Shown: positions 29,202 through 44,893 of the stretch, piece by piece | Layout of the letters: each line of letters begins with the position of its first letter | Numbering within the stretch: position 1 is the first letter of the stretch | Origin: Terriglobia bacterium | GTDB taxonomy: Bacteria; Acidobacteriota; Terriglobia; JAJPHL01; JAPKYU01 | Length of the DNA stretch: 64,000 bases | Direction: 5' to 3' | Assembly (NCBI GenBank): GCA_965223005.1 | Contig: CBDCVK010000002.1 | Coordinates: 320,001 to 384,000 of the forward strand | Translations under genes and position numbers: made by a program | The notes under the pieces: generated by a model | The model's input: only the letters and a program-made list of their open reading frames with translations | Told to the model about the DNA's origin: nothing | The model's database searches: none

Positions 29202-31127
29202 TCACAAAATAACTCGGTCGTTGCCCACCCGCCGCGTGACTCGTTCGCGGTCCAGATACTCCAGCAAGGGAATGGCGTACTTGCGACTGATGCAGGCCAG
29301 GTCCTTGAAGCTGGACACGTTCAGCCGGTCGCTCCGCGCTTTGTAGTGTGCGAGCTGCGCGCGCAATCGCTCGATGGCGCTGCGGTGAAACACCAGCTCC
29401 TCGCTCACCTTGACCAGCACCAATTCCTTGATCAGGATTCGCAGAATCTTCTGAGCGCGCTGCGACTCGACCGGCAATTTCCCCAGCACTTCTTTGACCG
29501 AGGGCACCGTCAGCCCGGCGTTTCCAAACGCGGCGGTGATCCGCTGCTTCGCCTGCTCTTCTTCCTCGGTGAGGACAATCCGGCGCCCGGCCTGCTTGAC
29601 AATCTCGCCCTGAGCTTCCAGGCGGCCTTCGGCCGCCAGGCGGGCCAGCGCCGCCTCGAAGACCAGCGGCGACAGGCGGCCGAAACTGCGGTCGCGGAGT
29701 TCCTCCTTTGGGATGCCGGGCAGCAGCGGGTTGGCGGCGTGAAATTGCTCGACAAGTGCTGTCGCTTCCGCCAGCAGCCCGCGGAACCGCTTGCCATGTG
29801 CCAGAACCAGCGGCGAGTCCGACAAAATCTCGACTTTCTTCTGCCGGGCCAGCGCGCCTGCCGTTTCGCGCAGCTCGCTTTCCAGCCAGCCGGTGCGAGC
29901 GATCAGTTGCGACGCGGCGACAGCCGGCTCCCCGCGCTGGAGCACCGCCAGTAGGACTTCCTCCCGGGACCCGGTCTCTAGAATCTTCAGGAATTCAGCC
30001 GCGTTTCCTCCCGTGCCTGACCTGGCGCGTCTGGGTGAAGCTTGATTGTCCAGCACGCGCCCGCCGCCGATGGTGATGACCGGCGAGAACTGCCGGATGA
30101 TGAACCGGTCGCCGGGCAGCAGCAACGTCGGTTCTCGCAGAAGGAGTTGGGCGTAGCTGCTGCTGCCCGGCTCCAGCTTTTCCATTCCCGTCCCCAGGCG
30201 CACTTCAGAAACGACCGCTGCTGTCCCACAGTGGAAATGCACGCGGGCGCGGTGTTTCAGAGGCCGGACTGAAGGCAGCAGGTGCAGCAGCGTCTCGATG
30301 CGCTGGGTCGGCTCAAACACGCCTGGCGCCGCCAGGGTCATCCCGCGCTCGAGCTCCGCGAGCTCGATGCCGGCCAGGTTCAACGCGGTGCGCTGTCCAG
30401 CCAGCGCGCGCTCGGCCGGCTGGCCGTGCACCTGGATGCCGCGGACGCGCAGCCGCCGGCGCGTCGGAAACAGTTCCACTTCGTTGTCCTTCGTTAGCGT
30501 GCCGGAGACCAGGGTGCCGGTAACCACCGGGCCAAAGCCCTTCATCACGAAGGAGCGATCAACGGGCAGGCGGAAGTGGCGCGAGGAGTCCTTCGCCGGC
30601 GCCGCCGCGGCCAGGCGGGCCAGTTCCGCCCTCAGCCGGTCGAGGCCTTCGCCGGTGCGCACGCTCACCGGAACAATGGGCGTCCCGGCAAGAAATGAGC
30701 CGCCGACGAACTCCTCCACCTCCAGCCGCACCAACTCAACCAGGTCGCGGTCCACCAGGTCGGTTTTGGTCAGCGCCACCAGGCCACGGCGCACGTCCAG
30801 CAAGCGGCAGATGTCGAAGTGCTCGCGCGTCTGGGGCTTGATGGACTCGTCCGCGGCCACCACGAACAGCACCAAGTCAATGCCGCCGATGCCGGCCAGC
30901 ATGTTCTTCACAAAGCGCTCGTGGCCCGGAACGTCCACGAATGCCAGGCGCAGCACGGGGCGGTCTGCCTGCGCCGGGATCTCCAGGTGCGCGAAGCCCA
31001 GGTCAATGGTGATGCCGCGTCGCTTCTCCTCAGCCAGCCGGTCGGGGTCGGTGCCGGTCAGCGCCTTGACCAGGGCGCTCTTGCCGTGGTCAATGTGCCC
31101 GGCCGTGCCAACAATGACGTGCTTCAT
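29202..31127 (-). CDS. selB: Selenocysteine-specific translation elongation factor
   Basis: GTAGHIDHGKS, RGITIDLGFA, DVPGHERFVKNM, C-terminal winged-helix SRKYAIPLLEYLD. Confidence 0.97.
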   Translation of the reverse strand: MKHVIVGTAGHIDHGKSALVKALTGTDPDRLAEEKRRGITIDLGFAHLEIPAQADRPVLRLAFVDVPGHERFVKNMLAGIGGIDLVLFVVAADESIKPQTREHFDICRLLDVRRGLVALTKTDLVDRDLVELVRLEVEEFVGGSFLAGTPIVPVSVRTGEGLDRLRAELARLAAAAPAKDSSRHFRLPVDRSFVMKGFGPVVTGTLVSGTLTKDNEVELFPTRRRLRVRGIQVHGQPAERALAGQRTALNLAGIELAELERGMTLAAPGVFEPTQRIETLLHLLPSVRPLKHRARVHFHCGTAAVVSEVRLGTGMEKLEPGSSSYAQLLLREPTLLLPGDRFIIRQFSPVITIGGGRVLDNQASPRRARSGTGGNAAEFLKILETGSREEVLLAVLQRGEPAVAASQLIARTGWLESELRETAGALARQKKVEILSDSPLVLAHGKRFRGLLAEATALVEQFHAANPLLPGIPKEELRDRSFGRLSPLVFEAALARLAAEGRLEAQGEIVKQAGRRIVLTEEEEQAKQRITAAFGNAGLTVPSVKEVLGKLPVESQRAQKILRILIKELVLVKVSEELVFHRSAIERLRAQLAHYKARSDRLNVSSFKDLACISRKYAIPLLEYLDRERVTRRVGNDRVIL

Positions 31128-41760: not shown

Positions 41761-42201
41761 TCATTCCCGCCCAGATGGTTCTGCTTGCTTCGTTTTGGGA
41801 ATGTCGCGGAGCAGTTCGAGGATATGGCCGCGCAGTTCATCACGGGCGCGACGGAAAGCCTGCCGCACCTGTTCGGGCGATCCCGTGCTGGCGGCCGGGT
41901 CGTCCACCGGCCAATGCAGCCGGCGCACGTTGCCCGGAAACACGGGGCACTCGCGCGCCGCATTGTCGCAAACGGTTATGGTCAGATCTGGATCGGCCGG
42001 CACCTCGACCAGTCCTTTGGAGCGCTGGCCGGAAATGTCCCGCCCCAACTCGGCCATCACGGCGACCGCGTGCGGATTCAAGCCCACGGGTCGCGTCCCG
42101 GCGCTGTAGACCTGCCAGTCGGCCGGCCCGAGCGTCCGCAAGAGTCCCTCGGCCATCTGGCTGCGCGCCGAATTGCCGGTGCAAAGAAACAGGACTCTCA
42201 T
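41761..42201 (-). CDS. arsC: Thioredoxin-type arsenate reductase (LMW-PTP fold)
   Basis: LFLCTGNSARSQMAEG P-loop, SAGT, TVCDNAARECPVFPG redox Cys pair, HW..DDP. Confidence 0.88.
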   Translation of the reverse strand: MRVLFLCTGNSARSQMAEGLLRTLGPADWQVYSAGTRPVGLNPHAVAVMAELGRDISGQRSKGLVEVPADPDLTITVCDNAARECPVFPGNVRRLHWPVDDPAASTGSPEQVRQAFRRARDELRGHILELLRDIPKTKQAEPSGRE

Positions 42202-42235: not shown

Positions 42236-42286
42236 CAGGAGGCACACTGCGACAGGAGGCACAGTGCGACAGGAGGCACACTACAG
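42236..42286. repeat. 3 x 17-bp tandem direct repeat upstream of arsC
   Basis: caggaggcacactgcga / caggaggcacagtgcga / caggaggcacactacag. Confidence 0.9.
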
Positions 42287-42341
42287 CGCGCCGCTGGAGT
42301 CGCTGCTGCTGACCCCTGGGCGTCCGCAGGAATCCGATCTT

Positions 42342-42875
42342 CTATTCCGACTGATCCACGGACGTCCAGCGCTCGACGCTTAGCCCCGGCGGTTTGTCAG
42401 CGTGCGAGGGATGCAGCTTTCCGGAGACGCGCAGCCGCTTTCCCAGCAGGTCGCGGCGCTTCCTGATTTCGTCAATTTTTGCACCGCCAGCCAGGACGAA
42501 TTGCCGCGGCCGGCCCGGCATCACAAGCAACAGCAACTCGTCTTCTAGGGTGAGAGTTCCGGCCGCAGTTACCTCGATTTCCCGTGGCGAGAAGCCGGCA
42601 TCTCTTATGGCTTTGGGAATCCTGGTCGGGTCGAAGCTTTTGTCCTTCGCCGGCAGCACGATCCCCTGGCCGCTTTTCAGCTCTACCTTGACTTTGCCGA
42701 CGCCTTCCAGGCGCCGCAGGGCCTTTTCGGCCCCGTAGGCTCAAAGCGGTCAAACCATCCCGTCTATTCGCACTGCGGCCTTTTCGATTTGTGCGGCCAA
42801 GGGCACCGCCTCCGTGAGCCAGAATACGCTCAAAAGCGCCGCCGAAAAGATTGTCCTCCGAACCTTGCTGTTCAT
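42342..42875 (-). CDS. Predicted exported HMA-domain (MerP/CopZ-like) selenoprotein with UxxU motif (Sec42, Sec45), 177 aa
   Basis: AGGAGG SD and ATG at 42875 (ATGA overlap with the NHL gene). Translation MNSKVRRTIFSAALLSVFWLTEAVPLAAQIEKAAVRIDGMV[TGA]PL[TGA]AYGAEKALRRLEGVGKVKVELKSG...IPKAIRDAGF is in frame with ORF 42342..42659. The TGAs at 42750-42752 and 42741-42743 occupy the Cys positions of GMxCxxC. Confidence 0.88.
42699..42740 (-). promoter_or_regulatory. Two tandem candidate bacterial SECIS hairpins immediately 3' of the UGA codons
   Basis: GGGGCC-GAAAA-GGCCCU (42718-42734; loop 21 nt after UGA1) and GGCGCC-UGGAA-GGCGUC (42699-42715; loop 31 nt after UGA2). Each has a G in the first two loop positions. 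Folded by eye. Confidence 0.6.
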
Positions 42876-43834
42876 TTCTGCCTCCTTGCCACCACCTGCA
42901 ACTTAATGATGCGGTTATTGGCAGCATCGCTGACGTAGAGAAATCCCTGCCCATCAACCGCCAGCCCCTGGGGCGACTGGAACTTCGGACCGGCGCGATC
43001 CGGCACGGACCATTCGGCCAGATAGTTGCCTTCCGCGTCGAGCCATTGCACACGGTAGTTGCCGCTATCGGCCACATGCAAGTACCCGTTCTCGTCCACC
43101 ACTACGTCGGTGGGGTCCTGAAACTGCCCGTGCCAAGTGCCTGAGGTTCCCCACGCTGCCAGAAACTTTCCCCCGGGATCAAACTTCTGCACACGGTAGT
43201 TGTGGGCGTCGGCGACATAGACGCTGCCGTCGGAAGAAATGGTGAGCTTGGCCGGATAGTGCAACTGCCCTTTCGCTTGCCCGTCCTCGCCCCAACTGGC
43301 GAGAAACTTCCCCTCCGTAGAAAATTTCTGCACCCGGTGGTTGTAGAACTCGGTGACGTACACATTGGCCTCCGCGTCCACCACCACACCGGCCGGCGCG
43401 GAGAATTCCCCGTGGCGCTGCCCAGGGCGGCCCCACTGGCGCAGCAAGAGCCCTTCCCGGTCAAACACCATCAGGCGATCAAGCATGAAGTCCACTACGA
43501 AGATTTCGTCCCTGGGGCCCACCGCGACGTCCACCGGCTTGCGTAACTCGCCGCGCCCCTCTCCGCACGCCCCCCAGGTGCGGAGAAATTGACCTGTGCT
43601 AGCAAATACTTGTACGCGGCAGTTCCCGGCGTCGGCCACGTAGACCGCTCCCTCCGAATCCACCGCTAAGCCTTGCACGCTGTCGAGCTGGCCCGGCCCC
43701 TTGCCGGGCGTACCCCATTGCGTCACCACGCGGTAGTGAGGCCCGGCGGGCGCAACCGGAGGCGCTGGTTCCTGGGTGCACGCCCCGAGCAAGGCGGCCA
43801 GCAAAGTCAGCAAGCTGAGCCTTGTCCGAATCAT
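42872..43834 (-). CDS. NHL-repeat (6-bladed beta-propeller) lipoprotein
   Basis: Lipobox LLGAC; six repeats of WG..G.G.GQ/E..P..VAVD..G.VYVAD..N.RVQ.F. Confidence 0.9.
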   Translation of the reverse strand: MIRTRLSLLTLLAALLGACTQEPAPPVAPAGPHYRVVTQWGTPGKGPGQLDSVQGLAVDSEGAVYVADAGNCRVQVFASTGQFLRTWGACGEGRGELRKPVDVAVGPRDEIFVVDFMLDRLMVFDREGLLLRQWGRPGQRHGEFSAPAGVVVDAEANVYVTEFYNHRVQKFSTEGKFLASWGEDGQAKGQLHYPAKLTISSDGSVYVADAHNYRVQKFDPGGKFLAAWGTSGTWHGQFQDPTDVVVDENGYLHVADSGNYRVQWLDAEGNYLAEWSVPDRAGPKFQSPQGLAVDGQGFLYVSDAANNRIIKLQVVARRQK

Positions 43835-44697
43835 TAGAACAACCAGCGGAAGCCAATGATGAAGCTCGAAGCGGGCTTGATTTGCGAGCCGTTCAGGTCC
43901 CGTCCGACCGGAATGGGCGAGGAGAATTCCAGCACCATGCGATTGGACACGATGAACTCAATTCCCGGCGAGAAGAATAGCAGGTTGCCGCCGGTGTCGG
44001 GCAGCTGCATGCCATTGAGCCGAGCCCGACGAACGTGTGCCCCGTTTAGCTCCAGCACGAGCATCACGCTGGGGATGCCCAGACCGTTGCGGGGCAGCAG
44101 GCGGTAGAGGTAGGCAAGGTCGTAGTTCCAGCTGTTACCCCGGCGGAGACCGTCGTTGCCGGTTGTCGTGTAGGTGAATTGGGTGTCAGCGATCAGCCAG
44201 TGGGGGTCGCGAATATGGGAAAAGATGAGCGCGCCGATGGGGTCGGTCGAGCCGGTGCCAAAGGCCCCCCCACTGGGCACCTTCAGCCCGATTTCCGGCG
44301 AGAGCCGAGTGTATCCCCCAGGAACCATTTTGCGCAGCAGGTCGTAGCGGGCGAACACGGCGCTATCGGCAAAGCTGGTGGTAGTAAAGTCGCGGGCGGG
44401 GAGGCTGGGTGCCTCGCTCTGGAGGCTCACCAGCGGGGCCACGAAGCTTAGGCTCAGATGGGGATAGGCGCCCCAGACAACCGCATAGGGATTGGTGGTG
44501 CGGCGCAACCGCAGCCCGGGCACCCCTTCGTCGAAGTTGTCGATGCGCACGAAGCTGCGGAACATCACCGCGCGGTTGAACAAGGTCCGTCCCGCTGAGG
44601 CAACGATCTGGGGCTGGGCCGTGGGACACAGGAACAGCCAGCAACCAAGCAGAGCGATCCTCGTCAGCGTGCGGCCCATATCCCCGGTTCGGTTCAT
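43834..44697 (-). CDS. Putative outer-membrane beta-barrel channel (MetA-pathway/'transporter'-like)
   Basis: Signal peptide; FADSAVFARY, GLKVPSG, GTGSTD, LELNG, DTGGNLLFFSPGI; amphipathic strands; C-terminal GFRWLF with terminal Phe. Confidence 0.7.
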   Translation of the reverse strand: MNRTGDMGRTLTRIALLGCWLFLCPTAQPQIVASAGRTLFNRAVMFRSFVRIDNFDEGVPGLRLRRTTNPYAVVWGAYPHLSLSFVAPLVSLQSEAPSLPARDFTTTSFADSAVFARYDLLRKMVPGGYTRLSPEIGLKVPSGGAFGTGSTDPIGALIFSHIRDPHWLIADTQFTYTTTGNDGLRRGNSWNYDLAYLYRLLPRNGLGIPSVMLVLELNGAHVRRARLNGMQLPDTGGNLLFFSPGIEFIVSNRMVLEFSSPIPVGRDLNGSQIKPASSFIIGFRWLF

Positions 44698-44893
44698 GCG
44701 TCACGCTCATCCCCCACCTGCAGCGCGCATCCGGACACTGGTAAACCCCACCTTGTTTCAGGGTATCACCGGCTTGGAGGAATCAGAAGGAGCTTACCGC
44801 GGCCGTAAGGTTCGAGAAGGATTTTTACCCGTGAGAAGAAGAGCCGTGCGCTAGCTGGGATTCCACCGCATCTGGTCGAGCGAAAGCAGGATG

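Follow-up and report, generated by a model that had tools for sequence, protein, structure and literature searches.

The window analysed here (the whole 64,000-nt stretch, positions 320,001 to 384,000 of contig CBDCVK010000002.1 in the Terriglobia bacterium assembly GCA_965223005.1) carries a gene that is interrupted in frame by two UGA codons and appears to encode a two-domain selenoprotein. A first-pass annotation of the letters alone had described it as a hidden heavy-metal-binding protein with selenocysteine (Sec, U) at both metal ligands, in a UxxU arrangement. The gene and its features are as follows.

42342..42875, minus strand: entire gene, 177 codons followed by TAG, interrupted in frame by two UGA codons predicted to encode Sec (direct reading and full-length orthologues)
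42881..42886, minus strand: Shine-Dalgarno sequence AGGAGG, 5 nt before the ATG (read directly)
42789..42875, minus strand: probable signal peptide of the Sec (export) pathway, residues 1-29, with a basic N-terminus and a hydrophobic core, ending ...PLAAQ
42591..42773, minus strand: HMA domain, beta-alpha-beta-beta-alpha-beta, residues 35-95 (Pfam PF00403)
42750..42752, minus strand: UGA 1, predicted Sec42, at the first metal-ligand position; TGA in 11 of 13 close orthologues and TGT in 2
42741..42743, minus strand: UGA 2, predicted Sec45, at the second metal-ligand position; TGA in 13 of 13 close orthologues
42717..42735, minus strand: hairpin H1, 7-bp stem, loop GAAAA; 83.3% of cells paired in 48 sequences; also recovered by RNAalifold
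42698..42716, minus strand: hairpin H2, 7-bp stem, loop UGGAA (consensus NGGNN); 95.2% paired in the same 48 sequences
42360..42590, minus strand: putative OB-like five-stranded barrel, residues 96-172 (AlphaFold2 model and weak Foldseek matches)
42396..42413, minus strand: HPSHAD loop, residues 155-160, almost unchanged among the close orthologues

Direct reading of 42886..42873 upheld the start proposed in the first-pass annotation, namely the AGGAGG sequence followed by an ATG (42875..42873) that overlaps, as ATGA, the TGA stop of the upstream NHL open reading frame (ORF; 42872..43834). With TGA read as U, the frame was likewise found as described, running open for 177 codons to a TAG at 42344..42342 with no other stops or frameshifts. 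The in-frame TGAs are codons 42 and 45 only, giving the motif GMVUPLU, and under translation table 11 the sole listed ORF here is the C-terminal 105 residues (42342..42659). Sequencing error was ruled out as the origin of the TGAs. Assembled contigs from public runs of three studies, including run X1, which is possibly the source sample of the window, carry both TGAs with no differences, and neither TGC nor TGT was seen in their place. On the evidence of sequence, the locus is a genuine, intact and conserved gene for a predicted double-Sec selenoprotein that is routinely mis-annotated. A scan for regulatory sites at the locus gave 0 promoter-like sites and 1 terminator-like site, which is below the shuffle expectation. 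As a separate observation from the public data, runs X3 and X7 show a summed contig depth that is raised about 3- to 7-fold precisely across the stretch with the UGAs and hairpins (window positions 42697..42755), and their assemblies fragment into short unitigs there, as expected if several organisms in the samples share a nearly identical nucleotide stretch.

The two TGAs are a conserved property of the family. Species-representative genomes, when scanned, gave 13 close orthologues with 50-68% identity, which belong to Acidiferrales, Terriglobia, Blastocatellia, Thermoanaerobaculia and "HR08/HR10" assemblies; among the 12 with an N-terminus 10 were UxxU and 2 were CxxU. Metagenomes yielded 21 further close orthologues (19 UxxU and 2 CxxU) together with a second subfamily of 14 loci with the motif GATU(A/V)TU. 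Because no CxxC form was found among the 33 close orthologues read at the motif (12 from genomes and 21 from metagenomes), Sec appears to be obligatory in this orthologue group. Beyond this group UxxU occurs in three subfamilies in all (GATUATU, GMTUNFU and GMAUHLU), and relatives of the window's genome comprised UxxU (GMTUNFU), several UxxC and also CxxC forms; the UxxU, UxxC and CxxC relatives keep a common layout of signal peptide, HMA domain and C-terminal domain. All four motif forms that had been predicted for the family were therefore found, the tabulated motif contexts amounting to 41 distinct UxxU, 2 CxxU, 7 UxxC and 31 CxxC. That the same two TGAs recur in 41 distinct UxxU relatives, some of them only about 28% identical, is far beyond chance, and it contradicts a scenario in which the TGAs were peculiar to this genome and accompanied by decay downstream.

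The protein is under selection before, between and after the two codons. Every one of the 31 rows in the family alignment has C or U at positions 42 and 45, and the two positions fall on the two Cys ligand columns of the Pfam HMA domain, confirming the first-pass placement of both TGAs at the metal-ligand Cys positions. Residues A28, Q29, A33 and G39 are invariant in 13 of 13 close orthologues, each with 2 to 4 synonymous codons, and such invariance ahead of the TGAs indicates protein-level selection on both sides of them; the stretch from the second TGA to the first possible restart codon is also conserved as protein. In a quick tree the CxxU pair is nested within the UxxU clade, adjoining a UxxU sister, and so looks to have been derived by a single TGA-to-TGT change. 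In a collection of 5.8 billion proteins, none of the 62 homologues contained the UxxU region, because gene callers truncate them: the entries are truncations of 98-124 residues or start past the region. Two further observations concern individual relatives. One locus (L030; G053 C1:309315-309715) reads GLTUPLC and its match to the query switches frame after about residue 50, which indicates either a frameshifted copy or an assembly error, and an intact second gene of the UxxC form (GMTUEGC) stands in the same locus. At L038:3001-3759 and L093:1702-2451 the protein is extended at its C-terminus by a Cys-rich DUF5818 domain (41.5 and 29.9 bits, cut-off 27), and the database proteins P0011 and P0048 likewise carry such a domain.

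Selection was also detected at the RNA level. Hairpin H1 starts 14 nt after UGA 1 and 5 nt after UGA 2, and H2 starts 24 nt after UGA 2 and 33 nt after UGA 1. Codons in this stretch are frozen (G48 is GGG in 12 of 12 sequences, and A52 GCC, R55 CGC, L56 CTG and G58 GGC are each found in 13 of 13), whereas conserved four- and six-fold codon positions elsewhere in the gene use 3 to 5 codons. The mean codon entropy was 0.45 over codons 46-59 (9 columns) compared with 1.44 elsewhere (52 columns; Mann-Whitney p = 2.9e-5). The paired share of cells was 89.3% over 48 sequences drawn from all the Sec-bearing subfamilies, compared with 80.8% after shuffling (0 of 500 shuffles reach the observed value), and slid registers gave pairing of just 30-43%. 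Seven pairs show double changes across these sequences, including 30:42 (GC28/CG12/AU2), 31:41 (GC29/CG12) and 33:39 (CG30/GC4/UA3) in H1 and 47:63 (AU30/GC14/GU3/CG1) in H2, and RNAalifold, unprompted, recovered both hairpins. In the GATUATU subfamily the peptide encoded by H2 is K-R-Q-A-G-V rather than R-R-L-E-G-V, yet the H2 stem is kept, and H1 stands at the same place with an entirely different sequence. At least 6 of the 7 H2 pairs were present in 41 of 41 UxxU, 2 of 2 CxxU and 5 of 7 UxxC forms, and in 0 of 31 CxxC forms; in the CxxU forms H1 is weaker, forming 5 of its 7 pairs. Selection thus acts on both hairpins, the invariant one being H2 with its NGGNN loop.

These properties make H2 the best candidate for the SelB-binding core of a Sec insertion sequence (SECIS). 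The hairpin of the selD gene of the same genome starts 13 nt after its UGA, a spacing near the 14 nt between UGA 1 and H1, and its loop also begins with GG. SECIS-search rules place the apical loop about 16-37 nt from the UGA, and an arrangement of one hairpin per UGA, with H1 serving UGA 1 and H2 serving UGA 2, may apply, fitting this spacing and the weaker H1 of the CxxU forms. An Rfam scan of 42300..42900 gave no SECIS-type match, just a chance microRNA match at an E value of 1.7. A search of the genome with the H2 core pattern, from which the window's own copy differs by one base and so was not matched, returned 3 unrelated sites, none of them behind an in-frame UGA of a recognizable gene.

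The first-pass annotation had taken selB as the sign of a Sec-decoding system, and this proved correct. The selB gene lies within the window:

29211..31118, minus strand: selB, Sec-specific elongation factor (TIGR00475, 341.3 bits against a cut-off of 242.25)

The window's genome further contains selA (551 bits), selD (357 bits) and a tRNA-Sec (78.5 bits, anticodon tca). Its selD (G000 C10:916629-917552, L002) is itself a selenoprotein gene with one in-frame TGA, in the motif ...SGUASKL.... Among the 10 genomes in which a Sec-form motif was read, selA was above the cut-off in 9; an eleventh genome (G049) with a TGA-containing match was left out of this count, as its motif was not seen. The expectation that TGA forms would occur only in genomes with sel genes was, as far as selA goes, borne out in 9 of 10 genomes, the tenth having no selA match. 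In one relative (G017), selA (C3:1330816-1332174) lies about 6 kb from a UxxC family member (C3:1338416-1338727).

The protein itself was examined by profile searches and by an AlphaFold2 model built on the 31-row alignment (predicted local distance difference test score, pLDDT, 90.3; predicted template modelling score, pTM, 0.81). The signal peptide called in the first pass was supported by the shape of the sequence and by a model helix at residues 4-23, which has a lower pLDDT, and the same layout is seen in 31 of 31 alignment rows; the cleavage site and export to the periplasm are inferred from it. Assignment of the following domain to the HMA/MerP/CopZ type also held up, with PF00403 scoring 35.8 bits against a gathering threshold of 24.8. 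In the model its elements are strands 30-38, 59-65, 70-75 and 96 onward and helices 43-54 and 83-92, with U42 and U45 between strand 30-38 and helix 43-54, and Foldseek matched residues 30-100 to HMA7, MerP, CopZ and ATP7B domains with template modelling (TM) scores by target of 0.80-0.89.

The last HMA strand runs on, in the model, into a C-terminal barrel of topology beta-beta-beta-alpha-beta-beta (strands 96-111, 114-118, 125-129, 147-155 and 164-172, helix 132-139). Its sole structural neighbours are the OB domains of LysRS, AspRS and Stn1-Ten1 (7f6w, 4joi, 6wom). This region has no Pfam family, with sub-threshold hints to DUF4431 (E value of 0.012) and DUF5818 (E value of 0.14), and a PDB sequence search gave 0 matches at E values up to 10. 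The predicted topology fits the earlier suggestion of an OB fold; the assignment itself comes from a predicted model and weak structural matches, and we regard an OB-like C-terminal domain as plausible on the model. CusF is a periplasmic OB-fold Cu(I)/Ag(I) chaperone, a small five-stranded barrel engaged in metal hand-over; the likeness of our C-terminal domain to it is an analogy, CusF being absent among the Foldseek matches shown. Residues H155, P156, H158, A159 and D160 are each present in at least 90% of 29 rows and form a loop between the last two model strands, and this HPSHAD loop is a possible second metal site.

Selenoproteins with an HMA-type fold and Sec at both ligand positions have been catalogued before, as NCBIfam NF041115 (UxxU_metal_bind), and they also appear in two reviews (PMC9312934, PMC13188914). 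The reference cited for NF041115 is the one that the 2022 review gives for its Olavius-named families, and a term search of the text of the Olavius symbiont paper did not find the NF041115 family. Our protein shares with NF041115 the fold, the two Sec positions and the status of a predicted selenoprotein. The NF041115 profile, however, describes a single domain of 74 positions, whereas the present protein has a signal peptide, an OB-like domain and an associated barrel and NHL module, and scores 39.2 bits against a cut-off of 95; eight relatives drawn from all subfamilies score 20.3-45.9 and none of the eight reaches any curated cut-off. The first-pass view that two Sec residues in an exported bacterial protein are unusual must be qualified accordingly: this protein falls outside the NF041115 cut-off, while the UxxU HMA family as such was already catalogued.

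Two other families were compared. MerP (TIGR02052) is similarly a secreted HMA domain with a GMxCxxC-type loop, and its structures 1osd and 1afi are among the fold matches. MerP, however, is a single-domain Cys protein encoded with merT and merA, whereas this protein has Sec and two domains and scores 31.8 bits against the TIGR02052 cut-off of 92.55; there is no merT or merA in the gene cassette, and next to the gene stand those for an NHL propeller and a barrel and, outside the cassette, an ArsC-like one. NF045683, a MerT/CopZ fusion-like heavy-metal transport selenoprotein, also has a Sec-bearing HMA-type module but is a membrane fusion of 235 positions, whose cut-off of 375 bits compares with the 29.8 bits reached here. 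Searches of open-access full text found no paper on an HMA-OB selenoprotein or on a barrel-NHL-HMA module. The family is widespread in soil bacteria and uncatalogued, and the HMA-OB protein would represent, from these comparisons, a two-domain family of its own among the known HMA-type UxxU selenoproteins.

The selenoprotein gene is the last of three tightly packed genes, whose surroundings are listed here.

43834..44697, minus strand: first cassette gene, predicted 12-stranded outer-membrane beta-barrel of 287 residues ending ...RWLF, COG4313/FapF-like
42872..43834, minus strand: second cassette gene, NHL-repeat beta-propeller of 320 residues (Pfam NHL, 139.9 bits)
42250..44893, no strand assigned: strain-variable three-gene cassette (barrel, NHL, HMA-UxxU-OB), boundaries approximate, from same-genus comparison
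41761..42201, minus strand: ArsC-like gene of the low-molecular-weight phosphatase family, downstream of and outside the cassette, scoring 130 bits to the thioredoxin-type arsenate reductase family TIGR02691, under its cut-off of 174

The barrel protein was modelled by AlphaFold2 with a pLDDT of 86.1, and Foldseek matched it to FapF (5o67; E value of 2e-11) and to the COG4313 channel 4rl8, with TM scores of 0.67-0.72; the modelled 12-stranded barrel resembles theirs, at a sequence identity of just 12-14%. PF13557 reached 19.2 bits, below its gathering threshold of 22, and there was otherwise no significant family match. A C-terminal aromatic residue is present in 29 of the 30 barrel homologues listed. 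Known COG4313 and FapF members pass hydrophobic compounds or amyloid subunits and are not known to pass metals.

The association of the three genes is recurrent. The barrel gene adjoins the selenoprotein gene in 12 of the 12 genome orthologues that have upstream sequence, and among the 133 loci searched 69 others have a barrel homologue next to their HMA gene and 46 an NHL homologue. Some of these loci are of the CxxC form and come from Thermodesulfobacteriota, Nitrospirota, Planctomycetota and Salinibacter, their gene order varying, and in L018 of G001 a secreted UxxU HMA selenoprotein is adjacent to an outer-membrane barrel. The recurrence of these neighbours across phyla marks the trio as an old, conserved module, and the overlap at the ATGA predicts that the NHL gene is translationally coupled to the selenoprotein gene. 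In orthologous loci the module is often accompanied by metal-homeostasis genes. A MerR-family regulator is found in 8 of 22 of them (the best family match is MerR at 113 bits, below the cut-off), and P-type-ATPase-like ORF fragments were seen by eye in L044 and L106.

Three observations were made around the cassette. In three orthologous loci (L104:960-1427, L106:336-818 and L109:624-1106), the gene immediately upstream of that for the barrel encodes a membrane protein of 155-160 residues with an FCCALPA motif and a second Cys pair; neither Pfam nor NCBIfam gives a match for this protein, a possible MerT/MerC-like partner. A 17-bp tandem repeat of 2.8 copies with 93% matches (42236..42282) lies downstream of the selenoprotein stop and ahead of the ArsC-like gene, where the cassette has its right-hand junction, and G001 has a different short repeat there. 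Relative to three same-genus genomes the cassette is an insertion or a deletion, and no integrase or other mobile-element hallmark was present in the stretch examined.

Taken together, we consider it probable, and hold with good confidence, that this is a gene read with Sec whose product is an exported HMA-OB diselenolate metal binder working with its cassette partners. Both UGAs would be read as Sec by the SelA, SelB, SelD and tRNA-Sec of the genome, with the conserved hairpin pair after the second UGA serving the decoding, and the product would then be exported to the periplasm. There the HMA domain, fused to the OB-like barrel, would present a U-x-x-U diselenolate in place of C-x-x-C, and a soft, thiophilic metal ion, such as Hg(II), Cu(I) or similar, would most likely be bound between the two selenolates. 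The presumably co-transcribed 12-stranded outer-membrane channel and the NHL propeller are most likely its partners, in contact with which it would take up the metal within the cell envelope or pass it on, whether for uptake, scavenging or detoxification. The first-pass suggestion of a chaperone or scavenger for Hg, Cu, Ag or Au agrees with this reading, and we infer the metal and the role from fold and neighbours.

Several points weigh against the explanation just given. The three genes are absent from three same-genus genomes (G001, G002 and G003; compared at loci L086, L087 and L088), whose sequence aligns with the window on either side at 76-95%; in G001 the place of the cassette is taken by about 143 unrelated bases. 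A database protein of 117 residues on a 959-kb contig (P0063) keeps residues 1-38 alone, at 87% identity, ahead of an unrelated tail that was not found in the window's genome, and probably represents a copy that was truncated or rearranged in some close relative. The missing cassette and this remnant indicate that the gene is dispensable and sometimes lost. One carrier of a Sec form (G033, 95% complete) has selB and tRNA-Sec and no selA match. H2 starts 24-33 nt after the UGAs as opposed to 13 nt for the genome's own selD hairpin, and with H2 retained in UxxC forms and 5 of 7 H1 pairs still formed in CxxU forms, a simple rule of one hairpin per UGA is unsupported. The OB assignment comes from a predicted model and Foldseek matches with E values of 4.5e-4 to 1.6e-3 and TM scores by query of 0.28-0.31, and the protein reaches no curated family cut-off other than that of Pfam HMA. 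The MerR link is limited to the 8 of 22 loci, and the window's own cassette contains no regulator, inner-membrane transporter or reductase and hence no local pointer to a metal. There was no RNA run among the public sequencing runs listed.

The main alternative, which we consider unlikely, is that U-x-x-U is a redox centre, the protein being a periplasmic selenol/diselenide oxidoreductase or chalcogen carrier that uses the HMA fold as a scaffold. Most catalogued UxxC, CxxU and UxxU selenoproteins are thiol-oxidoreductase-like, according to the passages on them in PMC9312934 and PMC13188914. A protein with tetratricopeptide repeats and a thioredoxin/redoxin domain is encoded just downstream in L041, L042, L046 and L099, and the MerP structure 1osd among the fold matches is of the oxidized form. 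However, both fold and motif match metal-binding HMA domains and not thioredoxin folds, all of the family matches are metal chaperone, MerP or ATPase domains, the orthologous loci include the MerR-type metal regulators, and the redoxin neighbour could equally keep the selenols reduced.

A role in handling arsenic or another metalloid, suggested by the ArsC-like neighbour, is very unlikely. The score of that neighbour to the arsenate reductase family favours the idea, as do ArsR-like ORFs seen by eye in L043 and L101. The gene is, however, 86-95% identical in same-genus genomes that have no cassette, and among the loci searched it occurs at the window's own locus only; since it is no part of the variable cassette, the link was rejected. 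Hardly credible, and already contradicted by the data, is a pseudogene in which two nonsense mutations chanced to fall on Cys codons and the 105-residue ORF or nothing is made: table 11 leaves only that ORF open, all the database entries are truncated calls of this kind and the cassette is missing in close relatives, but the same two TGAs recur in the 41 distinct sequences, the protein is conserved before and between them and up to the first downstream start codon with no other stop or frameshift, the downstream hairpins covary and are confined to Sec forms, and the 105-residue ORF would start within the HMA fold. The first-pass preference for Sec recoding over two chance nonsense mutations is thus supported by the recurrent TGAs, the covarying hairpins and the complete machinery.

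A wider proposal can be built on the diselenolate metal binder, and we put it forward tentatively, giving it somewhat less than even credence. In it the trio would be an unrecognized, horizontally mobile envelope system whose diselenolate captures soft metals (Hg, Cu, Ag or Au) at or below the reach of thiolate affinity and passes them to or from the outer-membrane channel, and a composite two-hairpin SECIS would let SelB decode two UGAs 9 nt apart.

The idea of a UxxU HMA selenoprotein was already known, which limits the surprise of the present finding. The family is nevertheless large and environmentally widespread, with 41 distinct UxxU sequences in Acidobacteriota of soil, groundwater and sediment and in others, and current annotation is blind to it, as all 62 database homologues lack the active site. 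Two Sec residues in a metal-binding rather than a redox fold could be used to test what a selenolate gains in metal affinity or exchange kinetics, and two adjacent, independently covarying hairpins behind UGAs 9 nt apart offer a natural system for studying how SelB decodes closely spaced Sec codons. Finally, the barrel-NHL-HMA module suggests that metals cross the outer envelope by a route not yet described, which would be relevant to the cycling of mercury and copper in soil.

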